Shown here: piece by piece, positions 3,252 to 40,086 of the stretch
Layout of the letters: every line of letters begins with the position of its first letter
Numbering within the stretch: the stretch's first letter is position 1
Source of the DNA: a candidate division WOR-3 bacterium
GTDB lineage: Bacteria > Hydrothermota > 32-111
DNA length: 64,000 nucleotides
Assembly (NCBI GenBank): GCA_037481815.1
Contig: JBBFKX010000002.1
Coordinates: 160,001-224,000 of the forward strand
Direction of reading: 5' to 3'
Made by a program: the position numbers and the translations under genes
The notes under the pieces: model-generated
Database searches by the model: none
The model's input: only the letters and a program-made list of their open reading frames with translations
Told to the model about the DNA's origin: nothing

Positions 3252-3270
3252 AAAATTTTCTCCTTTAAAA

Positions 3271-3298
3271 ATCATAACAGAAGAATATAAAATTTCAA
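3271..3298 (-). promoter_or_regulatory. Putative promoter of the S8 peptidase
   Basis: TTGAAA-N16-TATGAT with TGn extension, in the gap after the rseP stop. Confidence 0.5.
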
Positions 3299-10873: not shown

Positions 10874-11950
10874 TTACTTCCCCTGTTTTTTTAACTCTTC
10901 ATATTTCTTGTATTCTTCTTTTGCTTTGTCGTTCATTTTCATTCTCGAATAGCAGTCGGCTTTTATCAGATAAAGATCGCTTATCTCAATTCCACTTTTG
11001 GAGATATATTCATCGATAATTTTTATAGCATCAGCATAATTTTGATTTTTGTAATATGCGAATCCCAAGTTCAACATCGATTCAAAATCATCCTCTTTAA
11101 CCTTCAAAGCGTTCTCAAAGTTAACAACTGCTTCTTTGTAGTTCTTTTTTTCATCAAGATAGATTTTCCCAAGTTTGAAAGAAACATCATTTTTGTATGT
11201 CGAGAGTTTGGATTTCATGGTTGAATCTGAAGATTCATAAATTTTGTTGAAACTGTTAAAATTCTTTATTGCCTCATCAAAATTTTTCTTTGAATATGCT
11301 ATTTCTCCAAGCCAGTATATGATCTGTGGATTTTCAGCATCTATATCTTTTGCTTTATCCAGATACTTCTTTGCTTCATCGAACTTTTCGATTCCAATAT
11401 AATATTTTGCAACATTGAAAAAGAGTGAAAGATTTTTTGGGTTCTTTGAAACAGATTTTTCTATAGTTTTTGTCATGTTCGTTTCATCACCAGTTTCAGC
11501 GTAAAGTAGTACAAGATAATCATAGTTTATAGAAGTATCTTTAACTTCCTCCGCTTTTAAAAGATATTTTTCATACTTTGATTTATTCTCTTTACTATCC
11601 TTATTTCTCAAGAAACCCGTTCCCGCATTGAAGAGTACTGGCCAGTAAAATTCAACATTCTCTTTCATCTCTTTTAAAACTTGTCCTGTAGTATCCTTTT
11701 CAAGTGCGATAATAAAATACTCTGATGCTTTATCAAACTCACTCTTTGAACCGTATGCCTTACCCATCCAAAGATACGCCTGTGGGTTGTTCGGTTCAAG
11801 TTTTATCGCTTCGTTGAACTGAACTATCGCTTTATCAAAATCGTTCTGTTGCATATATATTATACCTGATGACATATATTGATTGTTACATCCAACCATA
11901 AGTATAACTACCATTGCAACGATTAACAACAAATTAAAAAACCTGTACAT
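10874..11950 (-). CDS. TPR-repeat lipoprotein
   Basis: Signal peptide with lipobox LMVG-C; multiple TPR helix pairs. Confidence 0.8.
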   Translation of the reverse strand: MYRFFNLLLIVAMVVILMVGCNNQYMSSGIIYMQQNDFDKAIVQFNEAIKLEPNNPQAYLWMGKAYGSKSEFDKASEYFIIALEKDTTGQVLKEMKENVEFYWPVLFNAGTGFLRNKDSKENKSKYEKYLLKAEEVKDTSINYDYLVLLYAETGDETNMTKTIEKSVSKNPKNLSLFFNVAKYYIGIEKFDEAKKYLDKAKDIDAENPQIIYWLGEIAYSKKNFDEAIKNFNSFNKIYESSDSTMKSKLSTYKNDVSFKLGKIYLDEKKNYKEAVVNFENALKVKEDDFESMLNLGFAYYKNQNYADAIKIIDEYISKSGIEISDLYLIKADCYSRMKMNDKAKEEYKKYEELKKQGK

Positions 11951-12058: not shown

Positions 12059-12529
12059 TTACCGAAACAGGTTATCAATTATGTTGTCAACTTGATTTTT
12101 GAAATCTCTGTCAAAAGTTATTTTTTCATCCTCCTCTTCCTTCATAAGTTTAACTATATTCTCACTTAATTTTTTCATCATCGTTTGAACAACTCCTATT
12201 ATGGTATCTTTTGAAAAAAGAGAAACTATAATTATCTCATCGTTTACTGCAAGATAAAAAAAGGAAAATTTTTTTCCTTCCTGAAAGAGTGTAAAAAAAT
12301 AATCCTCTTTAACAAGTTTTGCGATACTTTTTGTTGCATTGAAAATTCCAGCACATAAGGCACCTAACGATTGAGTGTAATAGTTATCCTTTTTCATACC
12401 CATCTGAAAAAGCACCTGACCTGCACTATTTATAATAAGAACATTCAGGACCTTTGTATCCTGAATGAATGTCTTCAAAAACCGTTCAACATCTTTGACG
12501 GTTGGCTCATCAAGAACAAGTTTTTTCAT
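12059..12529 (-). CDS. mglB: Roadblock/LC7 protein, MglB homologue (regulator of MglA-type small GTPases)
   Basis: Aligns by eye over its full length with Myxococcus MglB as I recall it: VLIINSAGQVL, SLGALCAGIFNATKSIAKLVKE, FQEG, IGVVQ, and the C-terminal helix IIDNLFR. Confidence 0.75.
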   Translation of the reverse strand: MKKLVLDEPTVKDVERFLKTFIQDTKVLNVLIINSAGQVLFQMGMKKDNYYTQSLGALCAGIFNATKSIAKLVKEDYFFTLFQEGKKFSFFYLAVNDEIIIVSLFSKDTIIGVVQTMMKKLSENIVKLMKEEEDEKITFDRDFKNQVDNIIDNLFR

Positions 12530-12535
12530 AAAATT

Positions 12536-12880
12536 TTATATATTCCCCTGAAGTTGTGCTGCGATATTTTTTATTTGTATTATCAAAGCCCCAATGTTCA
12601 CATTCTTTTCAGCAAGAGCAAACAGTATAAACTTTTCTTTTGAAATGAAAAGTACTTCACCTTTTTCAGTGTATATCGTTGAAAATATTGGAAGGGAGTC
12701 GGTACTCTTTCCCAAACTTTTTTCCATCTCACTGTTTATCTTTGCAACCATCGCTCCAAGCAGTTCCGCCATTTCACTTTCATAGAAAATTTTATCAACG
12801 ATGAGTCCATCTTTTGTAAGAACAGCAACACCTTTAACTCCAGTTATCTCCATTATCTTCTCAATTTTCTCTTTTATCAT
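12536..12880 (-). CDS. Roadblock/LC7 domain protein (MglC-like)
   Basis: 114 aa, ITGVKGVAVLTKDGLIV...LLGAM...NIGALIIQIK roadblock pattern. Confidence 0.8.
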   Translation of the reverse strand: MIKEKIEKIMEITGVKGVAVLTKDGLIVDKIFYESEMAELLGAMVAKINSEMEKSLGKSTDSLPIFSTIYTEKGEVLFISKEKFILFALAEKNVNIGALIIQIKNIAAQLQGNI

Positions 12881-13593
12881 TGTTCAAGCACCTGTTTTAT
12901 ATTTTTTAACAACTGTTTCGCTTTTATAAGTATAAGACCTATCTTTACAACCTCTTCAGTGAAAATCCCCAGTATATATCCATTACCTTTAAAAAGATAT
13001 ATTCTGACTTTTCCAATTTCGATAAAGATCCTGTCTATCAGACCAAGATCGGTTTTACTTATAGAATCCTCTGAAACAGAAAAAATCGTCGAAAAAAGTG
13101 CAGAGGTGATTTCAGGGTCAAGGTTTTCCAGTATCTTTGCTCTTATAACAAGGCCTGATTCTTCAATTATGATACTCCCCAAAACTCCATTTATAGAGTT
13201 TATCTCTTCAAGCGATCTGTCAAGTAAACTTTCCGCCTCATTTGCGGTTATAACATTGTCCTTTTCTATCTTTTGCAAATCTTCTTTTTTTATCTCAGAG
13301 TTTTTTGAAATCCCACCCTCTTCGACTCTCACAGGTTGTATTAAAGATCTTACCGAAGGATCATCGGGAAATTCATTCAAAAGTTGATTCAAAACTTCTG
13401 TGGCAGATGGATCGTTCAATTCCTTTAAAGATCTATAAAGCAGAATTTTTGCATCCTTTATATCGGGAAATTCTGAAAGAATAAGTTTACAGTAGTTTAT
13501 AGTTTCGTTGAACGCTTTGTTCTTATAAAGATCCTCAGCGATCATTATAAGTAGTGAAATACTATCCCGATCAACTTTCATTCCTTCATTCAA
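12877..13593 (-). CDS. TPR + roadblock/LC7 fusion protein
   Basis: N-terminal TPR-like helices; C-terminal INGVLGSIIIEESGLVI...SALFSTIF...KIGLILIK roadblock domain. Confidence 0.8.
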   Translation of the reverse strand: MNEGMKVDRDSISLLIMIAEDLYKNKAFNETINYCKLILSEFPDIKDAKILLYRSLKELNDPSATEVLNQLLNEFPDDPSVRSLIQPVRVEEGGISKNSEIKKEDLQKIEKDNVITANEAESLLDRSLEEINSINGVLGSIIIEESGLVIRAKILENLDPEITSALFSTIFSVSEDSISKTDLGLIDRIFIEIGKVRIYLFKGNGYILGIFTEEVVKIGLILIKAKQLLKNIKQVLEQ

Positions 13594-14695
13594 ATTTACC
13601 TCCTAAAAGTTCATCAAAGATTTTTTGACACTCTTTAAGAGATTCTACAAGTTTTTCAACCTTACTCATCTGATCCGGTGTTTGGAGATTATCATAAAGA
13701 GAAATCAGTTCATCTATACTCTTCTTTACATCTCCCCTTTTAAAGTAAGCAAAAGAATTATACTTTTTTATAAAAGGATCATCGATTCCCTCGTTTTTTG
13801 CTATCAGAGTGAACTCGTTTATTTTATCAAACTGATTAGTTGCAAAGAATGAATAAATAAGCATTCTGTAAGCATCGAGATTTTTTGGATCCTTTTTAAC
13901 ATAATTTTTCAACTCGTTTATAGCTTTATCGAACAATCCATCATTGAAATAATGTTTTGCAACATCAAAACTACTTTCCACATCACCTTTTTGAGCGCCT
14001 TCGATAATAACTATACCAAGAGTTATCATTCCATATATCAATTTTGCTATTTCAAACTCATCACCATATTTTTCGGCGATATCTTTAATCGTGTTTTTAC
14101 CATTTATCATCGAAAAAATTTCCCACTCTTTTGGTTTAAGATCCAAAAGGTCCATTTTGTCTGGATTGTCAGAGATTTTTGGAATCACCGATGAGTTTGG
14201 AATCTTTGCGGATAACCTTGACCATTCATCTATTCTTCTTGAGCCCTCCATTATCAAAGATTCGGTTTTGATTTTGAATTTGAACAGGTTGTCGAGAATG
14301 AAATTACCTTCCTCAAATTTGAAATATCCTTCTCTCCATTCAAAAAGTTTGTATATGGTATCTTCGATTCTGAGTTGTAAAAATTTTCTGAACTCGTTTT
14401 CAGTCATAATGTTCATCTTTATTATCTCTTTTGCGATTTCAACATCATCGTTTTGAATTTTGTTCATTATCCTCTGTTCATAAAATTCTTTGGTTATTTT
14501 CCCAGCTTTTATCAAAAGCAAAGGCAAAGTTATCCCTTCCATACTAACATACACAACATTCCCATTTTCAAAATAAACGTTCGCTTTTTCTTCTTTATTT
14601 GAATCTATTTTTAATATTCCACTCTTCTGATTGAAAGATAGTATCTGAAACAGATCTATGAGATTCAGTTCACTGATTGGTCCTTCAATAGCCAC
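13586..14695 (-). CDS. DUF4388 (PATAN-like) domain protein with C-terminal TPR
   Basis: EGPISELNLIDLFQILSFNQKSGILKI, VYFENGNVV, LFEWREGYFKF, LIMEGSRRIDEW. Start GTG 14695 after AGGAG. Confidence 0.85.
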   Translation of the reverse strand: MAIEGPISELNLIDLFQILSFNQKSGILKIDSNKEEKANVYFENGNVVYVSMEGITLPLLLIKAGKITKEFYEQRIMNKIQNDDVEIAKEIIKMNIMTENEFRKFLQLRIEDTIYKLFEWREGYFKFEEGNFILDNLFKFKIKTESLIMEGSRRIDEWSRLSAKIPNSSVIPKISDNPDKMDLLDLKPKEWEIFSMINGKNTIKDIAEKYGDEFEIAKLIYGMITLGIVIIEGAQKGDVESSFDVAKHYFNDGLFDKAINELKNYVKKDPKNLDAYRMLIYSFFATNQFDKINEFTLIAKNEGIDDPFIKKYNSFAYFKRGDVKKSIDELISLYDNLQTPDQMSKVEKLVESLKECQKIFDELLGGKFE

Positions 14696-14703
14696 ATCCA
14701 CTC

Positions 14704-17412
14704 CTATTCAAAAATTGATATCCAGTTTCTTGCTGCTTCTATCGCTTTTGCGCTCTTCTGTGCAAATTCTGATTCAGGTGAATTCTTTACAACAAAATTC
14801 CACCTTTCCATAGCTTCCTTAATATATCCTTCCTTTGCTATTATCTTTGCAAAATTGAAATTCGCTTCAGGATTTGCGGGATCTATTTTTAGAGCGTTTT
14901 GATAAGCATCCTTTGCAACATCAAAATTTTCGATCTCCTGACAGACCGAACCTATTCTTAAAAATGCTCTGAGGTTGTTTGGATCAATCTGAACAATTCT
15001 TGTATAGATCTGAATAGATTTTTCAAAATCCTCGACTAATTCATAGATCGTTGCAAGTTCCCACAAATAACCAAGATTCTCTACATCTTTACTTATCAAC
15101 GATTCAAGAATTTTGATCGATTCATCGTACATTTTCATACTTCTTAAAACTATCGCTTTTTTGTAAAGGATATCTAGATTCTCTGGATCCTTATTCAGGA
15201 TTCTTTCGTATATTTCGAGTGCATCCCTATCTCTTCTCTGACTGACATATATTTCAGAGAGATTCGTTAGAGTTTCAATATTTTCAGGATCCTTTAAAAG
15301 TATCTCACCGATAATTTTTATCGCCTCTTCAAGGTTTCCATTTTTCCAGAGTAACATCGAATATAGATTCAAAACATCTATTTTATTTCTATCCTTTTCA
15401 ATTATCTTTGAAAGATATTCTATCGGTTCTGAATAGATCCCTTTGTTATAGAGTAGTTTGGAGAGTTTTAAAACCACTTTTTCGTTAAGAGGAGAGAGCG
15501 AAACTATTTTTCGATAATACTCTTCTGCTTCTCCATAGATCTGTTTTATATTGTAAACATCAGCGATTATTTCAAACATTTCCACATCGCACTCATCTTT
15601 TCTTACAACTTCAAAAGCACTCTGTGAAGCAAGATCATATTCACCCTTTTCAAAATATTCTTTTGCTTTTTTTCTCTTCTCCTCAAGTTGATCGACTTCC
15701 TTTAATTTAAGATCCTCTTTTTCAAAAGTATCCTCTGTTTCCTCTTCAAAAACACCTGTAAAAATATCTGAACTCTTCTCTTCTCCGATTGTGAAACCTT
15801 CTAGTTGTTCTGATGATGTAACCTGAACATCCTTTGACAGACTACCACTTATCAAAACATCCACTTTATCTGCGTAATAGTCAAGTCCAAGTTTATATCT
15901 TGTCTCAACATAATAGGGATTAAGTTTTAATGCTTCTTTCGTATATTTGAGTGCATCCTCATACCTTCCAACTTTTGTTAAGGTGAAAGCAAGGTTGTAG
16001 TATGCCTCAGCGAAATTTTCATCATACTGGATCGCTTTTTCAAAAACTTTTATCGCATCCTCAAATTTTCCTTCCTCTCTATAGATTATTCCAAGATAAT
16101 TGTATGTTAAAGGATAATCACCTTTTATCTCAAGAACTTTATCGATATATTTTTTCGCCTCTATAAAATTTTTATTTTCGATAAAGATTATCGATAGATT
16201 CAAAAGAGCATCAACATAATCATCCCTTATCTGTAAAGATTTGTTAAACATTTTTAATGCTTCATCCGTCTTATTTTTATGAAGCATTGCGATTCCAAGG
16301 TTATTGTATGCCATCACATATGATGGATCCATCTTTATAGATTTATTATAACAATCTATCGCATTTTCAAGTTCACCTTTTCTGTGAAAAGCGATACCCA
16401 TATCGTTGTACGCTTTTGCTGCAAACGATTCATCTTTAAGTGCAAGTTTGTATTCCTCTATCGCTTTATCGTTTTCTCCAAGAAGAAGATAGATCTCACC
16501 GATCTGAATGTGAATCAGCGCTCGATCCGGCTCAACAGATTCAGCCTTCTTAAACTCTTTTAGCGCTTCATTGAAAAGCCCTTTGTTCCGAAAACCAATT
16601 CCAAGTGTAAAGTATGTTAAAAAACTGTTCGGTTGAATCGAAACATTCGATTCTTCCTGAACAAAACTCTGATACATCCCCTGCTGATAAAAATCTATTC
16701 CAAGGTTTGCCTGTGTTTTTCCGTAAGCGGGATTCAACTTAATCGCTTTTTTTGTTTCCTTAATCGCGTCATCAAAAAGCCCTTTCTCTCCATAAACAAA
16801 GCCCAAAAGAAAATGTGCTTCAGCAAGGTTGGGATCGAGTTCAAGAGCTTTTTGGAATTCTTTTATAGCAGAATCAAGTATTCCCTTGTTATAGTAAACC
16901 TCACCAAGCATCGAGTGTATTTGAGCTGAATCGGGCTGTGTTTTTAAAGCTTTTCGATACTCTTCGATCGAATCATCATACATACCTAAAGATTTATATA
17001 TCTTCGCAAGGTTCAACCTCGCATCAACAAATGATGGGTTACTCTTTAAAATCTTCTTATACTCAGCGATAGCATCAAGCGATTTTCCCATGTTGTTCAA
17101 AGCTTCTGCAAGTTTAAACCTTGTGTTCAAATCTTCGGGATTCTTTTCAAGAACTTCTCTGTACTCTTTTATCTTTTCATCATACATCCCTGTTTCTTTG
17201 TAGATGAGTTCGAGATTCTTTTTCGCCAGGGTAAATTTCGGATCTATCGCAAGTGCTTTTTCAAGTTCTTCAATCGCTTCATCATAAAGACCTTTGTTGT
17301 AATACACAACAGCAAGATTGTTGTGTGCACCAGCATCCTTTGGATCTATCCTCTGGGCGAACGACTTTAAAACTCTCTTTTCTGCTTCAGATATTTGAAC
17401 CTGTTTTTTCAT
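14704..17412 (-). CDS. Large cytoplasmic multi-TPR scaffold protein (902 aa)
   Basis: Roughly 20 TPR units (e.g. AHNNLAVVYYNKG, AYNNLGIAML), no signal peptide, acidic central linker. Confidence 0.9.
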   Translation of the reverse strand: MKKQVQISEAEKRVLKSFAQRIDPKDAGAHNNLAVVYYNKGLYDEAIEELEKALAIDPKFTLAKKNLELIYKETGMYDEKIKEYREVLEKNPEDLNTRFKLAEALNNMGKSLDAIAEYKKILKSNPSFVDARLNLAKIYKSLGMYDDSIEEYRKALKTQPDSAQIHSMLGEVYYNKGILDSAIKEFQKALELDPNLAEAHFLLGFVYGEKGLFDDAIKETKKAIKLNPAYGKTQANLGIDFYQQGMYQSFVQEESNVSIQPNSFLTYFTLGIGFRNKGLFNEALKEFKKAESVEPDRALIHIQIGEIYLLLGENDKAIEEYKLALKDESFAAKAYNDMGIAFHRKGELENAIDCYNKSIKMDPSYVMAYNNLGIAMLHKNKTDEALKMFNKSLQIRDDYVDALLNLSIIFIENKNFIEAKKYIDKVLEIKGDYPLTYNYLGIIYREEGKFEDAIKVFEKAIQYDENFAEAYYNLAFTLTKVGRYEDALKYTKEALKLNPYYVETRYKLGLDYYADKVDVLISGSLSKDVQVTSSEQLEGFTIGEEKSSDIFTGVFEEETEDTFEKEDLKLKEVDQLEEKRKKAKEYFEKGEYDLASQSAFEVVRKDECDVEMFEIIADVYNIKQIYGEAEEYYRKIVSLSPLNEKVVLKLSKLLYNKGIYSEPIEYLSKIIEKDRNKIDVLNLYSMLLWKNGNLEEAIKIIGEILLKDPENIETLTNLSEIYVSQRRDRDALEIYERILNKDPENLDILYKKAIVLRSMKMYDESIKILESLISKDVENLGYLWELATIYELVEDFEKSIQIYTRIVQIDPNNLRAFLRIGSVCQEIENFDVAKDAYQNALKIDPANPEANFNFAKIIAKEGYIKEAMERWNFVVKNSPESEFAQKSAKAIEAARNWISIFE

Positions 17413-17417
17413 TCAAC

Positions 17418-18035
17418 CTACCTGTTTAAAAAATCGAGAAGTTTCTTTAAAGATATTGGATCAGGCAAAAGTATTAGATACCCTTTTAACGGATGTGGAT
17501 CATCCTCAAAAGTGAACTCTGTTTCAACACAGAAAACAACATCCTTGTTCGCACTGAAATCGATGTATGCTGAAGTTACTACAGCTGATCCTATATCAAT
17601 CACAAGATTTGGAACCGATGGTAAAATCAACATGTTCAAAAAATCACTCATCGCTGTAAGATATGAACTTATAACTATGTTTGCAACTTCTTTGATCGCT
17701 GATTGTTCTATCTCACTTAAAATCGTTGTCGTTCCAACAGGTTTTCCCATAACCATATCGACAAGAAGCATCGATTCATCTCTTGGAAATATCAAAAGTG
17801 TTCTACCTGTTAAATCTCCAAGAAATTTCACAAGAACACCTGTTACGATCTCGTCCTGGTTATTGATTATCCTGTATATCTCTTCTGAAGATATTATGTG
17901 AACTTTTGGAACCGAGACCATTACTCTTTTGTTCACAAGTTGTGAAAGAACGGTCGCAGCATGTCCTCCACCAATGTTGGAGATCTCTTTGATTCCATCC
18001 AGATGAAAATCTTTTAAGTTGTTAAAATCTATCAT
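17418..18035 (-). CDS. cheC: CheC-family CheY-P phosphatase (DifG-like)
   Basis: Two active-site motifs, DGIKEISNIGGGHAATVLS and SAIKEVANI. Confidence 0.93.
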   Translation of the reverse strand: MIDFNNLKDFHLDGIKEISNIGGGHAATVLSQLVNKRVMVSVPKVHIISSEEIYRIINNQDEIVTGVLVKFLGDLTGRTLLIFPRDESMLLVDMVMGKPVGTTTILSEIEQSAIKEVANIVISSYLTAMSDFLNMLILPSVPNLVIDIGSAVVTSAYIDFSANKDVVFCVETEFTFEDDPHPLKGYLILLPDPISLKKLLDFLNR

Positions 18036-18038
18036 AAA

Positions 18039-19919
18039 TTACCCCTCTTTAGCCATCGAAACAACACCTGGAACATCAACTATGAAAGATGGCATTCCGT
18101 TGTTTAAAATTGACACACCTGCAAGCCCATGAATACCTGAAAGTATTCCCTTAAGTGGCTTGACAACTACCTCTGATTGTTCTAGGAAATTATCCACAAG
18201 TATCCCGTATAAAGAATCCTCCACTTCAACAAGAACTATGGAATATTTGTCCCTATCTTCAACTTTTTCACATTTAAAAATTTTTGATAACCTTATAAGC
18301 GGTATTATTTGATCTCTCAATACGAAGACCTCTTTTTGCATAACCGTAAATATTTCGTTTTTGTTTATGTCTATCGTCTCCACGATGTGAGTTAAAGGTA
18401 TTATATAAACTTCACCACTCACCTCGACTATCAAAGTTTTTATTATGGCGAGTGTCAAAGGAAGTTTTAAAGTGAAAACTGTTCCTTTATCTTTCTGGGA
18501 CGAAATTTCAAGTGTTCCACCTATCTGTTTTAAAACATTGTAGACAGCACCAACACCCACACCTCTTCCTGAAATATCGTTAACCTCTTCTTTGGTGGAG
18601 AAACCTTCATTCATTATCAACGAATAGATATCGTTTTCATTTAGATGTTGTAATTTTTCTTCATCTATCAAATTTAATGACAATGCTTTTTCTATAATTT
18701 TATTTTTATCAAGTCCTTTACCATCATCTGAAACTGTTATCAAAACTCCATTTTTAACCCTTTTCGCTTCAAGTATTATCGTTCCGGTTTCATCTTTTTT
18801 ATTTTTTATCCTTTCCTGTTGAGTTTCTATTCCATGATCCACAGCATTCTTCAGAAGATGAAGCAATGGATCCGCAAGGGAATTCAGAATCGCTCTATCA
18901 AGTTCAATATCTCTTCCCTTTATTATAAAATTTACTTTCTTTTTCAACCTGTTTGAAAGATCCCTGATATACCTTGGATACCTATCAAAAACCTGTCCAA
19001 CTGGAACCATCCTTATCTTCATTATTTCATCCTGAATATTTGAGATTATCTTTGAAGTTGAGTTCAGAGAATTTATCAATTCTTCATTCTGTAAAGAGTA
19101 TGCTATCTGTTGCAACCTCCCTCTGGCTATAACAAGTTCTGAAGCATAGTTCTGGAGATTGTCAAGGCGTTCGAGTGAAACCTTTATATCCTTTTTTTCT
19201 ACAACGATTTCCTGATCACTTTTTGCTTCTTCTTTCACAAGGAAAGCATCTTTTATTTCAGGTATACCTTTAATCTCATCTATAACCTTTTCAATTTCAG
19301 TTGTATCTTTTATGTAAAGGGTGATCTCATCTTTAAAATTTTCCTTCATTATCGAATCAAAGTCCGGATCACTTTTTATGAAAATATTTCTATCCTGAAG
19401 ATTTTTAATAACGACGAAAGCTCTCGCTGATTTTAAAACAACATCTTCAGAAAAAATTATTTTTATCGCTTTTTCTGATGATAGAGAAACTTTCTCTATA
19501 GGGATCTTTTTTGTTTTTACTTCCTCTATCTTTTTCGTTTCCTTAACGATCTCAGAACCTGTTTTTATAGATTCAATCACCTTTAAAAAACTTTTTATAA
19601 TATTTTCATCTACATCTTTTTTATGGACAAGGGATTGTATATAATCTGTCCCCTTTAAGAGTAGGTCTATAAGTTCAGTGCTTACCTGTAATTTTTCATT
19701 TCGTATAAGATCCATAACATCTTCTATCGAATGGGAAATTTTTGTAATCGAAGAATAGCCCATTGAAGCTGCCATACCCTTTATCGTATGCATACCCCTA
19801 AAAATCGAGTTTATTGCCTCTATATCGTTCATATCCTTTTCAAGTTTCAAAATGGAATCAGAAACCTGCTCAAGGTACTCTTCAGCTTCACTTATGAACA
19901 ATTCTTCATAATTTGTCAT
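18039..19919 (-). CDS. cheA: Chemotaxis histidine kinase CheA (Hpt-P2-dimerisation-HATPase-CheW)
   Basis: FRGMHTIKGMA, P2-like LKSARAFVV, HLLKNAVDHGIE, DDGKG, GFST...SGRGVG, LPLTLAII. Confidence 0.97.
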   Translation of the reverse strand: MTNYEELFISEAEEYLEQVSDSILKLEKDMNDIEAINSIFRGMHTIKGMAASMGYSSITKISHSIEDVMDLIRNEKLQVSTELIDLLLKGTDYIQSLVHKKDVDENIIKSFLKVIESIKTGSEIVKETKKIEEVKTKKIPIEKVSLSSEKAIKIIFSEDVVLKSARAFVVIKNLQDRNIFIKSDPDFDSIMKENFKDEITLYIKDTTEIEKVIDEIKGIPEIKDAFLVKEEAKSDQEIVVEKKDIKVSLERLDNLQNYASELVIARGRLQQIAYSLQNEELINSLNSTSKIISNIQDEIMKIRMVPVGQVFDRYPRYIRDLSNRLKKKVNFIIKGRDIELDRAILNSLADPLLHLLKNAVDHGIETQQERIKNKKDETGTIILEAKRVKNGVLITVSDDGKGLDKNKIIEKALSLNLIDEEKLQHLNENDIYSLIMNEGFSTKEEVNDISGRGVGVGAVYNVLKQIGGTLEISSQKDKGTVFTLKLPLTLAIIKTLIVEVSGEVYIIPLTHIVETIDINKNEIFTVMQKEVFVLRDQIIPLIRLSKIFKCEKVEDRDKYSIVLVEVEDSLYGILVDNFLEQSEVVVKPLKGILSGIHGLAGVSILNNGMPSFIVDVPGVVSMAKEG

Positions 19920-19922
19920 ACA

Positions 19923-20291
19923 CTATTTCAAATTTAAAACTCTGTTGACAGATTCAAGAACCCTTGATGGTTGAAAAGGTTTAACGACAAAATCTTTGGC
20001 TCCCGCCTGAATCGCCTCTACTACAAGCGATTGTTGTCCCATGGCGGAAACCATCAATATCTTTGCGTTTGGAAACTCTTTTATAATTTCCCTGACAGCA
20101 TCTATACCTGACATATCAGGCATTATGATATCCATAGTTACAAGATCCGGCTGCAATTCTCTGTACATCTGCACAGCCTGAGATCCTGTCCCCGCCTCCC
20201 CACAAATTTCAAAACCTTCTTTTTTCAGAATATCTGCGATCATTCTTCTCATAAAAATTGCGTCATCAACTATAAGCACCCTTGTAGCCAT
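19923..20291 (-). CDS. cheY: Single-domain response regulator CheY (DifD / F1-class-like)
   Basis: VDDAIFMR, VTMDIIMP, SAMGQ, KPF. Confidence 0.95.
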   Translation of the reverse strand: MATRVLIVDDAIFMRRMIADILKKEGFEICGEAGTGSQAVQMYRELQPDLVTMDIIMPDMSGIDAVREIIKEFPNAKILMVSAMGQQSLVVEAIQAGAKDFVVKPFQPSRVLESVNRVLNLK

Positions 20292-20302: not shown

Positions 20303-20701
20303 CTAATTTTTGTTGATAATATTTTTCAAATTTAATATTATAATCTCTTTACCATCTTTTTCAACAAAACCTTTTATATATTCACCTTCACTCTCTTCAT
20401 CTTTTACCTTTGAAACGTTTATTATGCCTTCTATTTCATCTATTAGAAGGCCATACTTTTCTTTGTTTTTTTCACAGATGATTATATAATTTTCCTCAAC
20501 CTTTTTCATCATTTTCAGTTTTTTCTTCAACGAGATCAAAACAACAACATCTCCCCTTAAGTTTATTACACTTTCGATATAATCTTCAGCGTTTGGAATT
20601 CTAATACCTTTTATTCTCTCATAAATATCTATTATCTCGGATATCTTTATCCCATATATTTTACCTTCGATCTTAAACGTTATATACTGTTCATTTTCCA
20701 T
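20303..20701 (-). CDS. cheW: Chemotaxis coupling protein CheW
   Basis: YITFKI...YGI, IPNAEDYIESVINLRGDVVVLISL, GLLIDEI. Confidence 0.9.
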   Translation of the reverse strand: MENEQYITFKIEGKIYGIKISEIIDIYERIKGIRIPNAEDYIESVINLRGDVVVLISLKKKLKMMKKVEENYIIICEKNKEKYGLLIDEIEGIINVSKVKDEESEGEYIKGFVEKDGKEIIILNLKNIINKN

Positions 20702-20705
20702 TCTG

Positions 20706-23700
20706 TTAAATCTCCTTCCATGTGAATTCTATTGGAAGAACACTCAAAGGATGCGCATAGAAACCATGAACATCGTCATGTATCGCGATCTGCCGATAGT
20801 TGTGAGTTAAAAATACCCAGGGTGCATCATCGACAATTATTCTTTCAATATCCTGATACAATTTATTTCTTTCTTCAAAATTAGTTGTCATCCTTGCTTT
20901 TAAAATGAGATCGTCCACCTGTTTGTTCGAGTAAAAAGAGTTGTTTCCACCATCACCAAAACTTTCACTATGGAAAAGTGGATAAACGAAATTGTCAGGT
21001 TCACCTGTATCACCAGCCCAACCCATCATAAAAAGATCACATTTCCCGGAGTGCATCCTGTCAAGAAGTTCCACCCATTTCAAGGGAACTATTTTTATCC
21101 TGATACCTATTTCCTGCCACATACTCTGTAAGAGTTCCGCCCTCTTTATAACCCTTTCAGAATTTGAACATATCATTTCAAAACTGTGATTTATACCGTT
21201 AGGAAAACCGGCTTTTAACATCATCTCTTTTGCTTTTGATGGATTGTAAGGATAACCTTCAAGAGATTTGTTGTAACATGGAAGTGCTGGGGGAAATACA
21301 CCTTTTGAAATGATCCCGAGACCAAACATTGTTTCGTTGATGTACCTTGATTTATCGGTAGCATAGTTTATTGCTTTTCTTATCTCTTTTGTTAATGTGA
21401 TCTCATTTTTTCTTGACATGTTGAAACCAACATACTGAACATCAAGAGATGGTATCGTTAGAACTTTTATATCAACTCTGTTCTGTTTTTTTAATTTTTC
21501 AAGATCCTCAGCGTTTACAGAACAATAATCTATGTTTTTCGCCAGGAGTTCTTCAAACTCATCCTCTTCCCTTTTTATCTTTATTTCAACATTTTCAACA
21601 AAAGGTTCTCCTCCAAAATAATGTTTGTTGGATTCCATAAGAATCCTTTCATCATCAACATATTTTAAAATGAATGGTCCACAACCGATGCAGTTGTTTT
21701 TCATCTTTTCATCGGAAAATTTTACCATATCCTTTTTTATTACCGCAAGACATATCACAGCAAGATTTGATAGGAATGGAATATAAGGATATTCAAGAGT
21801 AAACTTTATCGTATGTTCATCGAGTATTTCAATTCCCTCAATATCACGGGCTCTTCTTTTTATGTAATTCTGGGCTCCCTTTATCATATTCACAAAAGGA
21901 GCGTTTGGAGTTAAAAGAACATTTTTTATGCTCTCTTTCACATCCTCTGCTGTTACAGGTGTTCCATCATGAAAGTAAGCGTTTTTTCTTAAAAAGAAAA
22001 CCCACTCCGTTGCATCAGAGTTGATATGCCAGTATTTTGCAAGTGCTGGGATAACACTTGTATCCTTTCCAAATCTCACAAGTCCAACATGGATCTGTTG
22101 TAAAACTGTATTACTCGTTGAATCACCAACGAGTGCTGGCTGCCAGTGAACGGGCAGGTTGTTCATTATGAATTTAAACCTATTCTTTTCAGGATCCCTT
22201 TTGATTATGAACTTCTCTGAAAATGTTTCCTGTATACCTGAAACCATCTTTAATGACTCTTCACTTTTCAAAATATCATTTTTAAAAATCCTGTTAAGTT
22301 CATCAGCCATCTGGTTTATTTTTTCAGATTTTGAAATTATGTTCATGTATAGTTTGACAATCTCATCCTTTAAAATTTCCTGCTGGGTTATGGTATCGTA
22401 AATCTCTTTCAAAAGATTTTTAAAATTCACTGCTGAGTCCTTTACATCCTTTACAACCTTGTTGCTCGTTTCTATTGAGAAAATAATCTTTTCCGCAGAA
22501 TCGAGTTCTTTATCAACAATGCTTAAAACATCGTGTAAAAGTTTTTCCATATTTTTTACTATATCTTTTATCTCAAGTGAGGCATCAGTTGCTTTTTTTA
22601 TGAGTTCTTTTGTCTGTGAAACTATAACAACAAGATTCTGTTGATATTTGCCTGATCTTGCTGCCTCGATCGAAGCATAGAGAGAAAGCAATTTTGTCTG
22701 TTCTGAAAGTTCTTTCAATTCTAAACTCGTTTCAAAAATTGATTTCAAATTTTTTGAAATTTCGTTGAAATCATCTTTAAGATTGACTATCATCTCAAGT
22801 GTTTTTTCGATATCATTTTTCACATTAACTACACTCGTTGAGAACTCGTTTACTGCACCAAGGAGAAGGTTAAGATTATCCTCTATCTCTCCAACATTTT
22901 TTAGCATCAACTGTTCACTTTCCTCTATTGATTCGATGGCACCGAAATAGTTTTTAACAACCTTTGATTGTTCATCGTTTCTTTCGATGAACTCGTTTAT
23001 AACTCCCATCGTTTGATCTATAATGTTTTTACTGTTTTCAAGGAAAAATTCTATCTTTTTGAAAATCTTTATCTCTGTTGCTATAGAATTATCTAATGAT
23101 TTCTTTTCATAAATAAGATCTGACAGAGGTTCAAGTTGTTGCATAAGATTCGATAGTCCAACCTTTACATCGGATTGTGTTTTAACCATTGTCATAAGTT
23201 TTTCGGTCGACTGTAAAGAAACATCAATTATATTTTGAACACTTTTGTTAAGGTCGTTGATCAGATTTTTATTTTTATCCTGTATGTTTATATATTCTTT
23301 CATCTTGTCCGACTTCAAAACAATATCAGAAAGGTTCATCTCAACATTTTTTAACCTGAAATTCAAAAGATCTATGTTTCTTTTTAATGCATCGATTCTG
23401 AACTTAATGTTATCGACAGATTCAATAACATTTTCTGTTTTCACTTTTATGTTCTGAATACTTTCAGGAATCCTTTTTGTTAGATTGAATGTTTTGTTCG
23501 CAAGAAGAAGCATCCTGTCAGCGATAACTTCAAAACCTCTTCCACTCTCTCCAGCATGATACGATTTTATCCCTGCGTTTCTTGCTGCCGATTCAGTCAT
23601 CTGTGCTATACCAATTATGATCTCGGTTATTTGACCTATGTGTTTTGAATACTCGTTAAATGGTTTTACAATATCGAGAATCTGGGATGAACCACTCGTA

Positions 23701-24044
23701 AAAATATTCAACTGGTTTATCACCTGATCAAACTCTTTGACACTATTTTTGATACTTTCCGTTGAGTTTTTTGAATAATCTATTAAAACATCCGCAGCTT
23801 CAGAAACTATCTGTATCGAAGCGTAAAGTTTGTTTCCTTTGTCTTCAATCTTTTCTATTTCATCAACCAATCCTTTTTCTTCAAATGAAATCGAAGAGAG
23901 TATAGAATGTGCGTTTCTGTTTATCTCAAGAAGTTCATCATCATCTATTTTTATAGTTTTCAAAGCATAGATCAGGGCTGTTGGATCAAATTCCTCTTCC
24001 TGTATTACTCCCTTTCTTTTAAAAAAATTGAAGAAAGACACCAT
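20706..24044 (-). CDS. Soluble chemoreceptor with two MCP signalling domains fused to a C-terminal family-5 (OppA/DppA-like) solute-binding domain
   Basis: Tip 1 is IAQMTESAARNAGIKSYHAGESGRGFEVIA; tip 2 is LSEQTKLLSLYASIEAARSG. The C-terminal ~490 aa contain PALAKYW, FFLRKNAYFHDGTPVTAEDV, IGCGPF, IRKAINYATD, YPYNPSKAK and DDAPWVFL. No TM helix or signal peptide. Confidence 0.88.
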   Translation of the reverse strand: MVSFFNFFKRKGVIQEEEFDPTALIYALKTIKIDDDELLEINRNAHSILSSISFEEKGLVDEIEKIEDKGNKLYASIQIVSEAADVLIDYSKNSTESIKNSVKEFDQVINQLNIFTSGSSQILDIVKPFNEYSKHIGQITEIIIGIAQMTESAARNAGIKSYHAGESGRGFEVIADRMLLLANKTFNLTKRIPESIQNIKVKTENVIESVDNIKFRIDALKRNIDLLNFRLKNVEMNLSDIVLKSDKMKEYINIQDKNKNLINDLNKSVQNIIDVSLQSTEKLMTMVKTQSDVKVGLSNLMQQLEPLSDLIYEKKSLDNSIATEIKIFKKIEFFLENSKNIIDQTMGVINEFIERNDEQSKVVKNYFGAIESIEESEQLMLKNVGEIEDNLNLLLGAVNEFSTSVVNVKNDIEKTLEMIVNLKDDFNEISKNLKSIFETSLELKELSEQTKLLSLYASIEAARSGKYQQNLVVIVSQTKELIKKATDASLEIKDIVKNMEKLLHDVLSIVDKELDSAEKIIFSIETSNKVVKDVKDSAVNFKNLLKEIYDTITQQEILKDEIVKLYMNIISKSEKINQMADELNRIFKNDILKSEESLKMVSGIQETFSEKFIIKRDPEKNRFKFIMNNLPVHWQPALVGDSTSNTVLQQIHVGLVRFGKDTSVIPALAKYWHINSDATEWVFFLRKNAYFHDGTPVTAEDVKESIKNVLLTPNAPFVNMIKGAQNYIKRRARDIEGIEILDEHTIKFTLEYPYIPFLSNLAVICLAVIKKDMVKFSDEKMKNNCIGCGPFILKYVDDERILMESNKHYFGGEPFVENVEIKIKREEDEFEELLAKNIDYCSVNAEDLEKLKKQNRVDIKVLTIPSLDVQYVGFNMSRKNEITLTKEIRKAINYATDKSRYINETMFGLGIISKGVFPPALPCYNKSLEGYPYNPSKAKEMMLKAGFPNGINHSFEMICSNSERVIKRAELLQSMWQEIGIRIKIVPLKWVELLDRMHSGKCDLFMMGWAGDTGEPDNFVYPLFHSESFGDGGNNSFYSNKQVDDLILKARMTTNFEERNKLYQDIERIIVDDAPWVFLTHNYRQIAIHDDVHGFYAHPLSVLPIEFTWKEI

Positions 24045-37437: not shown

Positions 37438-37465
37438 TTGACTTTTTTTGATATTGAATTATGAT
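37438..37465 (+). promoter_or_regulatory. Putative promoter of the diguanylate cyclase gene
   Basis: TTGACT-N16-TATGAT; the -10 overlaps the ORF-track ATG 37461, favouring ATG 37476 as the start. Confidence 0.45.
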
Positions 37466-37475
37466 TATTTTACAA

Positions 37476-38624
37476 ATGAAAGAAGATAAAGGGAATATTT
37501 TTTACACTGAATTCAACTATGATAAACTCTATTGGCTGATAAATATAAGAACATTACTTTTAATCTGTTTAACTATAATTTTTTCAATTTTATCAATATT
37601 TAAAATCAAAATAAATAACACATTTTCTCCTGAATATCTACTTTTTTGGCAGATGATAGCACTTGTGATCAATTTTTTACTCTATATTGATCTAAAATAT
37701 CTTCAAAACAATAAACACCTGATTATGAACGAGGAAAATTTTAAATATATTGGAATGATTCAAATCGATTTTGATATCCTTTATACGATAGTTACAATTT
37801 TTCTTTCAGGAGGAATAAAATCTCCACTTCTTTTTCTTTTCATTTATAACATAATCACTTCAAACTTTTTGATTCAGGATCGAAATACTTTCTTTTACAC
37901 CCTTATATTAATTGTGCTGATTTTCATCTCTGAATTCAGATTTAGATTCAAGGACACATTCCCATACATAGAGTATAAAACTTTGGAAAAGTTTGAAAAT
38001 ATGGTCTTGATCTCACTCATATTCTTTTTCCTCTTCTACCTTTCAAAATATGTATCGGAAAAACTGAAACAGAAACAGGAAGAGTTGAATAAACTATATC
38101 AGGAAACATACAAGTTATCAATAACTGATAGGTTGACAGGCCTTTATGATCAGACATATTTTAGAGTGAGTGCTTCTGACGCTATTGAGATCGCAAAAAT
38201 CAACAACAATAAACTTGCAATTGTAATGTTTGATATCGATAATTTTAAGGAGTTCAATGATACAAACGGACATCTTATGGGTTCACGCGCATTGGTTCAA
38301 ATAGCACAGATCATGAAAAAAACTTTTAGAAAAACTGACATCCTTGGTAAATATGGAGGAGACGAGTTTATAATACTCTTAAAAGATATAGATGAAAATT
38401 ATATAACATTTGTTCTTGAGAGATTCAAAAGTCAGATAGAAAATTTTAACTTTAATCCCGAAACATCAAGAGTTTCCCATTTGACTATTTCCATAGGTGT
38501 TTCGTTTTTTCCCAAAGATGGTGAAAACCTCGATACACTTATCGATAAAACTGATAAGGCATTATACACTGCAAAAAATTTAGGAAAAAATAATCTATTC
38601 ATTTTTGATGATAGTAAAAAGTAG
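37476..38624 (+). CDS. Membrane-bound diguanylate cyclase (GGDEF)
   Basis: About 5-6 TM helices, then TDRLTGLY, DIDNFKEFND..GH..G, RKTD I-site and KYGGDEF. Confidence 0.93.
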   Translation: MKEDKGNIFYTEFNYDKLYWLINIRTLLLICLTIIFSILSIFKIKINNTFSPEYLLFWQMIALVINFLLYIDLKYLQNNKHLIMNEENFKYIGMIQIDFDILYTIVTIFLSGGIKSPLLFLFIYNIITSNFLIQDRNTFFYTLILIVLIFISEFRFRFKDTFPYIEYKTLEKFENMVLISLIFFFLFYLSKYVSEKLKQKQEELNKLYQETYKLSITDRLTGLYDQTYFRVSASDAIEIAKINNNKLAIVMFDIDNFKEFNDTNGHLMGSRALVQIAQIMKKTFRKTDILGKYGGDEFIILLKDIDENYITFVLERFKSQIENFNFNPETSRVSHLTISIGVSFFPKDGENLDTLIDKTDKALYTAKNLGKNNLFIFDDSKK

Positions 38625-40085
38625 TTTTACAATATCAGGATCATAAATTTTTCCAACATTTTCGTTGAAAATTCCTTCAATATGTTTTTCAGTCAACTTA
38701 AAAATATCTTTAAAAACACAATATTCTCCAGCAACTCTAACTATTCTTGAACCAACTGGAATTTTTTTACCGACGAGTTTGTTAAAACCAGTTCCATCAT
38801 AGTTTTCGTAAAGAAATTTAATAATTTTTTGAGCATCTTCAAGCATCACAAGAGGTGCTATAATATCAGCACCTGATACGATCGCCTGTTTTATCTCTAA
38901 AGATTTTTCAGGGTCGAAGTATGTTGGTGCATTGAAGATCTCCTTTGGTTTACTCAAAAGTCCAAGGAGATGCAAAAGAGCCGAATACTGTATATCCCTT
39001 ATTTCATCTTCAGAAAGTTCCATCCTTTTTGCAATTTTTACAGAAAGTGCTGAAACTTTTTCACTGTGTTTTTTTAAACCAGGGAATATCCTATCCTCAA
39101 GATATAAAAAGGCGATCAAGGATTCAAGATAACTTCTTCTTGAATCCTCAAAAAATTTTGCAGATGCAAGAGAATTCGTGATCACGATCCTTGCGATTTC
39201 AAAAAGAACCATTTTTTCATCTTTAATTTTCAATGAATCTATTTCAAATATAAAAACTCCTATGATCAGTTTTCCTAAAAATATCGGCAAAGTAACCGTT
39301 GAGTTGTCCTTTATACCTTTAAGAGAGTACCCGATATTAATTTTGGAAGATTTGAAATATTCAATAAACTGGTTCCTGTTGATTTTGGTTCCAACTGGAA
39401 ACTCTTTTTCAAAATTTCTTTCCTTTTTAACAACGAAATCTCCACTTTTTTCATCAAAAAGAAGAAGAACCAAAGAGTGGGGATTAAAAATCGTATCAAG
39501 TTTTTCAAAAATGTTTAAAGCGTTAGATTCAAAAGATTTGATCACAGAGATCATTTCAGAAAAAGTTTTGAGTTCTTCAATGCTTTTTAAAAGTTCTTTT
39601 AGATAATTATCAAGTTTCTCTTTCTGTTCGGATACCAATTGGTTCGTGTTTAACAGTTCCTCATTCATTTTTTGAATGTCAGCACTCAATCTTTCTTTAT
39701 CAAGTAATAATTGCCTCTTCTCATAAGCGTTTCTGATAACAAGTAACATCGTATCTGCTGTGAATGGCTTTGAGACAAAATCGTAAGCACCACTCCTGAT
39801 GCATGTCATCGCAAGATTAATATCTATTGTTGCTGAGATAACGATTATAGGTGAAAAAGGATTTTCAATCGAAAAATTTGTTATGAAGTCAAAAACATCG
39901 GTTCCTGGCAACGACAGATCCACTATTATTAGAGAATATTGATTCAAAGATAACAGATTTTTAAATTGTACCCCATCGGTTGCAATATCCACATCAACAG
40001 CATCTTTCTTTTCATACTCGATGATCTTTTTTAAAAAATTGGCTACTGTGATTTCGCCATCAGCTACTAAAATTTTTTCTTTCAT
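38595..40085 (-). CDS. Response regulator: REC - coiled coil - GAF-like - degenerate HD-GYP
   Basis: REC with IIVDLSLPG and KPF. The C-terminal HSEKV...ALLHLLG...LYENYDGTGF...IPVGSRIV...YDP has the HD-GYP fold with altered metal ligands. Confidence 0.85.
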   Translation of the reverse strand: MKEKILVADGEITVANFLKKIIEYEKKDAVDVDIATDGVQFKNLLSLNQYSLIIVDLSLPGTDVFDFITNFSIENPFSPIIVISATIDINLAMTCIRSGAYDFVSKPFTADTMLLVIRNAYEKRQLLLDKERLSADIQKMNEELLNTNQLVSEQKEKLDNYLKELLKSIEELKTFSEMISVIKSFESNALNIFEKLDTIFNPHSLVLLLFDEKSGDFVVKKERNFEKEFPVGTKINRNQFIEYFKSSKINIGYSLKGIKDNSTVTLPIFLGKLIIGVFIFEIDSLKIKDEKMVLFEIARIVITNSLASAKFFEDSRRSYLESLIAFLYLEDRIFPGLKKHSEKVSALSVKIAKRMELSEDEIRDIQYSALLHLLGLLSKPKEIFNAPTYFDPEKSLEIKQAIVSGADIIAPLVMLEDAQKIIKFLYENYDGTGFNKLVGKKIPVGSRIVRVAGEYCVFKDIFKLTEKHIEGIFNENVGKIYDPDIVKLLFTIIKNE

Positions 40086-40086
40086 T

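Follow-up and report, generated by a model that had tools for sequence, protein, structure and literature searches.

What is the binding protein of a transporter doing at the end of a soluble chemoreceptor? The question is raised by a gene at 20706..24044 (minus strand) of a 64,000-nucleotide stretch of DNA from a candidate division WOR-3 bacterium (assembly GCA_037481815.1, contig JBBFKX010000002.1, positions 160,001 to 224,000), which we refer to as the window and which belongs to a metagenome-assembled genome of 20 contigs. A single open reading frame runs across the gene and encodes 1112 amino acids (aa). Pfam matches the methyl-accepting chemotaxis protein (MCP) family MCPsignal (PF00015) in two stretches of the protein (102 bits for the whole) and the family-5 solute-binding protein (SBP) family SBP_bac_5 in residues 664–1029 (E 5.3e-81, 273 bits, profile positions 2–366 of 368). 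Public names point both ways: NCBI calls a 96%-identical protein "ABC transporter substrate-binding protein", while the JGI name of one homologue includes "methyl-accepting chemotaxis protein". We found that the family-5 binding domain in this receptor is fused, complete and cytoplasmic, and that the fusion is real and conserved. The parts of the gene are as follows.

20706..24044, minus strand: soluble chemoreceptor gene, 1112 aa, two MCP hairpins plus C-terminal SBP_bac_5 (open reading frame, translation, Pfam, homologues)
23139..23942, minus strand: signalling hairpin 1, residues 35–302, MCPsignal in 91–274 (Pfam, helix in both models, PDB sequence matches)
23502..23597, minus strand: tip 1 motif, residues 150–181, consensus RNAGIKAYHAGExGRGFEVIADRM (19-sequence alignment)
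22212..23096, minus strand: signalling hairpin 2, residues 317–611, MCPsignal in 419–562 (Pfam, models, superposition)
22602..22706, minus strand: tip 2 motif, residues 447–481, consensus EQTxLLSLYASIEAARAGKFQ (19-sequence alignment)
22182..22211, minus strand: linker from hairpin 2 to the binding domain, residues 612–621 (non-helical in both models; contigs bridge it without an indel)
20709..22181, minus strand: DppA/GbpA-type family-5 solute-binding domain, residues 622–1112 (Pfam, sequence and structure matches)
21009..21011, minus strand: Asp1012 codon, the counterpart of Asp408 in E. coli DppA (by counting in the 1dpp alignment)

The export signal usual for family-5 SBPs is missing from the receptor. 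A hydropathy scan and inspection of the N-terminus, which is charged, revealed no transmembrane helix, signal peptide or lipobox in the 1112 aa, and the peak 19-residue Kyte-Doolittle mean, 1.51 at residue 751, falls within a conserved core strand of the SBP. The same holds for its relatives: an N-terminal hydrophobic segment is found in none of 47 long fusions (two of which, P0232 and P0259, proved on later inspection to have a single canonical tip) and in none of 45 short, one-hairpin fusions, as opposed to 119 of 153 stand-alone relatives. A transporter SBP would also be expected beside its permease and ATPase; no ABC permease or ATPase domain was found in the scanned window frames of at least 100 aa, and the BPD_transp_1 permease genes of this genome lie on another contig. 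Pfam finds no helix-turn-helix family in the receptor, and its N-terminal part is MCPsignal, so it is not a DNA-binding protein of the SgrR type either.

The junction itself (~22182–22211) is bridged with zero indels by contigs of four public sequencing runs from four studies, two of which may be the source of the window DNA and two of which are independent, and the contigs differ from the window at two substitution sites in total over 3.5 kb. Homologues matching both Pfam families (n = 19) are 1028–1128 aa long, with one of 1605 aa, and range from 96% to 25% identity; the fused frame is present at full length in 15 other species-representative genomes. When the N-terminal 618 aa were searched alone, a split form did not appear among the 7999 candidates scored, those sharing most words with the query: the only matches were the fused protein P0016 and generic MCP tips at ~1e-8, and no close SBP-less relative of the N-terminal part was seen among them. 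Across the phylum, 61 of 272 genomes, from 29 of 110 genera, have a match over both hairpins, among them 13 of 13 other genomes of the window's family. The frames measure 1047–1139 aa, apart from one that a contig end truncates to 577 aa. Each of these genomes has a single match, except that G016 also shows a second, shorter partial one. An architecture this common in the phylum is not a singular event.

These results bear out much of the initial annotation, which was made from the sequence of the window. It had described a 1112-aa frame ending in a complete family-5 domain, with the binding part at 20706–22190, which suits our estimate, and had seen no signal peptide, lipobox or transmembrane helix in the protein and no ABC permease or ATPase gene in the window. 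It had also left room for a break in the frame at the junction, or for homologues that are always two genes, and neither was found.

Both halves of the N-terminal region are recognisable as MCP signalling domains, hairpin 1 on the strength of its sequence. Each exceeds the Pfam MCPsignal cut-off of 34.6 bits separately: hairpin 1 scores 64.1 bits (profile positions 4–170, window 23223–23774) and hairpin 2 scores 53.8 bits (profile positions 18–161, window 22359–22790). MCP tips in the PDB match receptor residues 58–252 by sequence, and the two hairpins align with one another with their tips in register (hhalign, probability 96%, E 3.8e-9). Tip 1 retains chiefly the second half of the canonical MCP motif and tip 2 chiefly the first half; invariant across the 19 aligned sequences are N156, I159, H163, A164, G168, G170, V173, I174, A175 and L181 in tip 1, and L453, S454, Y456, A457, I459, E460, I474, V475 and L481 in tip 2. 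Both models have helices at 35–302, 317–463 and 465/468–611. In the AlphaFold model of the receptor, built on 19 homologues (mean predicted local distance difference test score, pLDDT, 83.2; predicted TM-score 0.63), hairpin 2 superposes on solved or modelled MCP hairpins, namely 9a65_A (Z 11.5, root-mean-square deviation (rmsd) 2.4 Å, 304 residues), 3g67 (Z 10.8, rmsd 2.5 Å, 213 of 213 residues) and 1qu7 (Z 9.6, rmsd 2.9 Å, 227 of 227 residues). No superposition row aligned hairpin 1 alone to an MCP, and Foldseek of the N-terminal model returned mostly generic long coiled coils.

In the same model, residues 622–1110 form a full family-5 binding protein, with block pLDDT mostly 80–96. Foldseek matches it to GbpA 3m8u (E 5e-33, target-normalised TM-score 0.83), DppA 1dpe (0.77) and 5u4o (0.89), and its other matches, among them YliB, lie within the same 0.77–0.89 range of target-normalised scores. 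By sequence, the last 494 aa match best, among solved structures, to GbpA 3m8u, a glutathione binder (3.1e-67), and to E. coli DppA 1dpp (1.9e-60); close solved relatives also include the Helicobacter pylori heme-binding/autoinducer-2 (AI-2)-binding protein A 6ofq (5e-55), other DppA/HbpA proteins, HbpA2, NikA/NikZ and opine binders. The SgrR model matches weakly (residues 646–827, 1.7e-7, 30 bits against a cut-off of 476), and the NikA, GsiB, CntA and SapA models all score far under their cut-offs. At 225.3 bits against a cut-off of 1005 for the NCBIfam DppA model, the domain is a relative of DppA rather than DppA itself.

What the domain binds can be approached through its pocket. Residues W1009, D1012, F1019, P1022–H1025, N1034 and Y1038 of the pocket region are invariant in the 19 sequences, and D1012, in the motif GWAGDTGEPDNF (position counted along the 1dpp alignment), aligns with DppA Asp408, which in DppA clamps the ligand by its free amino group. 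In DppA, this Asp forms a critical salt bridge to the charged end of the dipeptide, and the HbpA2 clade, which has Arg in its place, does not bind peptide-like ligands (PMC3295651). In this column Asp is the residue in 46 of the 47 long and 40 of the 45 short fusions, in each of the 9 membrane-anchored ones and in 141 of the 153 stand-alone relatives. Since it is kept about as often as in transporters, the pocket is maintained like that of working transporter proteins, and its ligand probably carries a free amino group. Together with the N-terminal hydrophobic segment missing from all 47 long and 45 short fusions, the retained Asp makes co-option as an internal sensor the natural reading.

The receptor gene heads a conserved operon of che, TPR, PATAN and Roadblock genes.

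20303..20701, minus strand: cheW, 132 aa (Pfam CheW 3e-25)
19923..20291, minus strand: cheY, 122 aa (Response_reg 7e-31)
18039..19919, minus strand: cheA, 626 aa, with Hpt, P2, H-kinase_dim, HATPase_c and CheW domains (Pfam)
17418..18035, minus strand: cheC/cheX-type phosphatase (CheC 5e-21, CheX 1e-7)
14704..17412, minus strand: TPR protein, 902 aa, operon-conserved (Pfam, gene order)
13586..14701, minus strand: PATAN (DUF4388) plus TPR protein (DUF4388 8e-27; position conserved)
12059..13593, minus strand: three conserved Roadblock/LC7 (MglB-like) genes at 12877–13593 (with TPR), 12536–12880 and 12059–12529 (Robl_LC7 5e-8, 2e-7, 6e-8)
10874..11950, minus strand: TPR protein, 358 aa, at the cluster end (also in loci L001 and L003)

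Ribosomal protein genes lie past the che cluster, and recR, ybaB and dnaX are upstream of the receptor. The operon order is kept in loci L001–L007, where N-terminal identity to the receptor is 43–84%, and in the distant loci L012, L014 and L015 (~21%). All 61 receptor genomes have a CheA, and in 51 of them it is on the receptor's own contig, no more than 7 kb away. The genome of the window (1.58 Mb, 95% complete) has one CheA, so the operon receptor is the one encoded with its only Che system; three CheW domains are found in three separate proteins (open frames of 141, 627 and 252 aa), and of the four MCP genes the other three carry transmembrane segments. FlhA, flagellin and FliF were not found in this 95% complete genome, and FlhA exceeds its cut-off in 6 of 272 phylum genomes and in 0 of the 61 receptor genomes. 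Six T2SSE-type ATPases exceed the cut-off in the genome, and PilT/PilB ATPases are present. Myxococcus has a Roadblock protein of its own, MglB, whose partner is the GTPase MglA. PATAN regulators are reported to act on the type IV pilus motor in Synechocystis (bioRxiv 10.1101/2021.06.11.447907; PMC11181946).

A second arrangement is seen in loci labelled as Cloacimonadota, where no che genes follow the receptor and it stands divergently beside a cluster encoding a PilT-like ATPase, a small GTPase, a DnaA-like ATPase, PATAN-TPR, CheR, CheD and CheB. The receptor is thus associated, through two distinct gene arrangements, with one Che system as well as with proteins of pili and polarity. The initial annotation had recognised the chemoreceptor, and its MCP identity stands; the two hairpins and the conserved che/PATAN/Roadblock operon had escaped it.

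The adaptation genes of the only Che system were observed elsewhere in the window's own genome (contig C3, L018:2835-15918), clustered with pilus and polarity genes: secretin, TPR, EF-P, a PilT-like ATPase, an Arf/Gtr1-like small GTPase (206 aa, MglA-like), a 552-aa protein with a weak STAND-NTPase match, PATAN-TPR, CheR, CheD, CheB, TPR and a 245-aa CheW. In the Cloacimonadota-labelled loci, a Bac_DnaA protein of 642–644 aa (L013:4274-6208 and L009:2131-4059) lies directly upstream of PATAN-TPR and takes the place of the 552-aa protein; in L013 it is found between the small GTPase and PATAN-TPR. The window also encodes, at 37461–44034, a GGDEF protein with a PilS-like domain of six transmembrane segments (37461–38624, plus strand), a receiver-HD protein (38595–40085, minus strand) and a 1315-aa PAS/GAF histidine kinase (40087–44034, minus strand), which may be a cyclic di-GMP module near the che operon.

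If the ligand is a peptide, the question is where it would come from. Uptake is a plausible source, and internal protein turnover is an equally open one. The window encodes an S8 subtilase (1335–3275, 646 aa) and an 881-aa C39-like peptidase with a type IX secretion system C-terminal sorting domain (57832–60477). The initial annotation had proposed that a transporter binding protein was co-opted as an intracellular sensor, in keeping with these peptidases; the cytoplasmic fused domain and the retained Asp agree with the co-option, while the tie to the peptidases is only circumstantial. The genome's only other SBP_bac_5 protein (contig C3, L017:16171-18279, 702 aa) unexpectedly ends in TonB_C (residues 626–701), and ~4 kb from its gene are two BPD_transp_1 permeases and an M20 peptidase, with no adjacent ABC ATPase.

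Taking these results together, the receptor is probably, if by no wide measure of certainty, a cytoplasmic sensor of a peptide-like ligand that uses two MCP hairpins and a Venus-flytrap domain to steer type IV pilus behaviour. In the proposed mechanism, the flytrap would close on a small ligand that has a free amino group. A di- or oligopeptide, taken up or released by protein turnover, would be the most likely one. The movement would pass through the 10-residue linker to the last helix of hairpin 2 and change CheA activity. Phosphorylated CheY (CheY-P), reset by CheC/X, would then influence the behaviour of type IV pili by way of the PATAN, Roadblock (MglB-like) and MglA-like proteins; the type IV pilus is proposed as the output because there are no flagellar genes in the genome. 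The distant CheR/CheD/CheB set may methylate the receptor or may leave it unmethylated.

Several observations weigh against this account. On the signalling side, both tips deviate from the MCP consensus, the hairpin scores of 64.1 and 53.8 bits are below the 112–147 bits of the genome's three membrane MCPs, and a methylation-site consensus, in a strict and a loose pattern of our own, was unmatched in residues 1–620. CheA is of the ordinary five-domain type and not of the ChpA or FrzE type, with no extra Hpt and no receiver. We infer the coupling to CheA/CheW from gene order alone, and the link to the pilus from the neighbourhood and from the absence of flagellar genes in metagenome-assembled genomes. 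On the ligand side, the NCBIfam DppA model NF043070 ranked first, yet at 225.3 bits against a cut-off of 1005. DppA Arg355, which we take to be the carboxylate clamp, corresponds to C959, S960 or N961 depending on gap placement, none of them Arg, and in the 47 long forms this column is Ser in 26 and Arg in 11. At the position of GbpA Arg33, a contact for the charged end of the ligand (PMC3295651), the receptor has an Asn by the 3m8u alignment. As neither position is Arg, a classic dipeptide or glutathione is not assured as the ligand. An obvious peptide importer is not evident either: the oligo_HPY ATPase domain was not found in the genome, a search of 6 genomes of the genus found neither OPT nor PTR2, and CstA, found in 5 of these 6, is present in the window's genome only as a fragment at a contig end, which leaves this fragment and the one permease pair without an adjacent ATPase.

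Some of these points would suit a ligand other than a peptide (glutathione, heme, nickel or a nickel chelate, AI-2, an opine or a sugar), with the pathway otherwise the same. The solved relatives GbpA 3m8u, HbpA2, 6ofq, NikA/NikZ and the opine binders give such a ligand some precedent, as do Thermotoga family-5 proteins that bind sugars (PMC8050422), and the position equivalent to Arg355 is not Arg. We nevertheless consider it unlikely, given the Asn aligned with GbpA Arg33, the low scores of the NikA, GsiB, CntA and SapA models, and the conservation of the Asp whose replacement marks the non-peptide HbpA2 clade (PMC3295651). That the domain binds no small molecule, and is a spacer or docking module in a scaffold receptor whose signals come through the three membrane MCPs, seems quite improbable to us. 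The fold is complete and confidently modelled over residues 622–1110, the pocket region has many invariant residues, the Asp that clamps the ligand is retained as often as in transporters, and short one-hairpin fusions, which are not scaffolds of the type of the Vibrio cholerae receptor DosM, retain the same binding domain. The case for a scaffold comes from DosM homologues, 98% of which have no sensor and are read as scaffolds (PMC9321776), and from the divergence of both tips, the unmatched methylation consensus and the transmembrane segments of the other three MCPs.

The public annotation would make the protein an exported or anchored ABC substrate-binding protein with its coiled coil as a stalk. 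Apart from the NCBI name of the 96%-identical protein, the data run the other way: there is no signal peptide, lipobox or transmembrane helix, two MCPsignal matches exceed the cut-off, cheW, cheY and cheA come next, the window holds no permease or ATPase, and the JGI name of a homologue cites an MCP. We regard this possibility as very slight. An assembly or frame artefact joining two genes could be feared in a metagenome-assembled genome of 20 contigs, but contigs of four runs cross residues 612–630 with zero indels, the same frame occurs in 61 genomes and in about 28 double-hairpin clusters without transmembrane segments among the best 150 representatives, and no close relative of the N-terminal part that lacks the SBP was seen among the candidates scored, so that an artefact is next to negligible as an explanation.

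Two arrangements of the hairpins in the one chain can be envisaged. DosM is described as rod-shaped and extended, having one tip in each of two CheA/CheW layers (PMC7534058). The receptor could be built likewise, as a rod whose two ends each carry a tip and which connects two CheA/CheW layers, the sensor lying at mid-plane; or it could be a pseudo-dimer made of a single chain, its two hairpins building the four-helix bundle for which ordinary receptors need two chains, with one monomeric sensor atop. In the monomer model, the regions around both tips are packed side by side as one bundle, though a monomer prediction would favour such packing anyway, making this a lead and not evidence. The top structure-match rows are long bundles of the ClyA type (residues 104–530, Z 15.2, rmsd 4.5 Å, 229 residues), and these matches to pore-forming toxins reflect shape only. 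Across 45 long forms (P0232 and P0259 dropped), the distance from tip 1 to tip 2 plotted against that from tip 2 to the sensor has a slope of 1.0, indicating that the length of hairpin 2 varies independently of hairpin 1; this fits the rod and the side-by-side model alike, as a bundle may be uneven at its far end. To our knowledge, all studied chemoreceptors assemble the signalling bundle from two identical chains. In a single-chain asymmetric receptor, one hairpin might be specialised to contact CheA/CheW and the other to make trimer contacts, with a monomeric flytrap on top. We put forward tentatively, and with more doubt than belief, the combined proposal that two unlike hairpins of one chain make a four-helix bundle, that the cell's own peptide pool is what is sensed, and that type IV pilus polarity is set through the MglA/MglB-like and PATAN proteins.

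Several parts of this receptor have counterparts in known systems. H. pylori TlpD is a soluble MCP with its sensor after the signalling domain; its sensor is small and zinc-binding and it has one hairpin, whereas the receptor described here has a three-lobed transporter binding protein and two hairpins. E. coli DppA-Tap and H. pylori AibA-TlpB use binding proteins of the same family (1dpp 2e-60; 6ofq 5e-55), with the Asp408 equivalent kept, and follow the same principle, a chemoreceptor being informed by a binding protein (PMC8050422). Those pairs act in trans in the periplasm, while the receptor is one polypeptide in the cytoplasm, without a signal peptide, an adjacent transporter or an Arg355 equivalent. 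DosM of class F9 is likewise soluble with two tandem signalling domains (PMC7534058, PMC9321776). F9 systems are described as having a triple CheW, DosM homologues that are sensorless in 98% of cases, and flagellar genes in 97% of species (PMC9321776); here there are three separate CheW proteins and a 490-aa sensor, no flagellar genes were found in the genome, and cheR and cheB are elsewhere in it. We did not assign the receptor to the F9/DosM class, which was compared by description only, because there is no triple-CheW (CheW3) adaptor and a sensor is present. SgrR/DsvR also use a cytoplasmic family-5 domain as a C-terminal sensor (bioRxiv 10.64898/2026.04.01.715812), but their output is a DNA-binding domain instead of a chemoreceptor and the sequence relation is distant, as the 30 bits against a cut-off of 476 indicate.

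For the output, the closest parallels are Frz of Myxococcus xanthus and cyanobacterial Tax/Pix, each likewise with a soluble or specialised MCP and Che-like control of pilus polarity. As in those systems, the che genes here are encoded with PATAN, Roadblock (MglB-like), an MglA-like GTPase and PilT. The differences are that CheA here is a standard P1–P5 kinase with no receiver and that PATAN is joined to TPR, not to receiver domains. FrzCD is reported to use DNA as a scaffold (PMC12077210). The components are therefore known, as soluble receptors with C-terminal sensors, double-domain receptors, family-5 proteins acting in trans and the cytoplasmic sensor of SgrR/DsvR, and no description of an MCP-SBP_bac_5 fusion was found in the open-access full text searched; the combination is new to that literature.

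The search for related architectures was extended with the 19-sequence profile to 1.84 billion representatives, of which the best 150 were classed with three sub-profiles of our own.

MCP-MCP-SBP: 35 of the best 150; about 28 without transmembrane segments, 1018–1137 aa
MCP-SBP: 36 of the best 150; about 800 aa
MCP-SBP-MCP-SBP: 4 of the best 150; 1605–1687 aa
SBP only: 58 of the best 150
Remainder: 17 of the best 150 (SBP repeats 16, MCP fragment 1)

The short form of ~800 aa has no hydrophobic segments and carries one canonical MCPsignal domain (121–148 bits) ahead of the binding domain in all 13 proteins examined; it includes records labelled Alkalithermobacter paradoxus and Symbiobacteriaceae, and some of its records are labelled as Firmicutes. 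Six members of the MCP-MCP-SBP class (~1050–1066 aa) start with a segment of strong hydrophobicity; they are probably forms anchored in the membrane and with a single hairpin, which our profiles split. A third class of ~1045–1066 aa (P0198, P0200, P0217, P0223, P0229, P0239, P0254, P0277 and P0288) was also observed, with a strongly hydrophobic N-terminal segment, one MCP domain and a C-terminal binding domain; these look like membrane-anchored versions of the MCP-SBP fusion. In the MCP-SBP-MCP-SBP proteins P0158, P0184, P0192 and P0214, the first MCP best fits hairpin 1 and the second hairpin 2, and they may be intermediate between the short and long forms. P0046 (507 aa, labelled Alkalithermobacter thermoalcaliphilus) is a stand-alone family-5 protein without a hydrophobic N-terminus that falls within the clade of fusion domains, and may be a split or truncated fusion form. 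The giant proteins P0179, P0196 and P0210 (2704–2843 aa) have four family-5 binding domains in tandem. A FastTree of 139 binding domains placed 34 fusion and 2 "solo" rows on one side of a branch with support 65, and gave support 83 to 33 fusion and 2 solo rows. We do not claim a single origin of the fusion, given the branch support of 65 and the solo rows being top matches to our own query.

The sensor domains of chemoreceptors have been catalogued in depth, and family-5 binding proteins are known to act on chemoreceptors only from outside the cell and in trans; this receptor shows the family-5 domain built into soluble chemoreceptors. It belongs to a widespread sensor class that is recorded publicly as transporter components, the one-hairpin form alone accounting for at least 36 clusters among the best 150 representatives. 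Outside myxobacteria and cyanobacteria, it also connects PATAN, Roadblock and MglA-like polarity proteins with a standard CheA system, and with it metabolism-linked taxis can be put to the test in lineages that are non-flagellated and uncultured. As a natural single-chain or double-ended receptor, it would be useful for studying how arrays are built, and if it forms a rod of the DosM kind, no scaffold of this sort before it would itself have been a sensor. The coupling of a flytrap to a kinase could be reused in biosensors.

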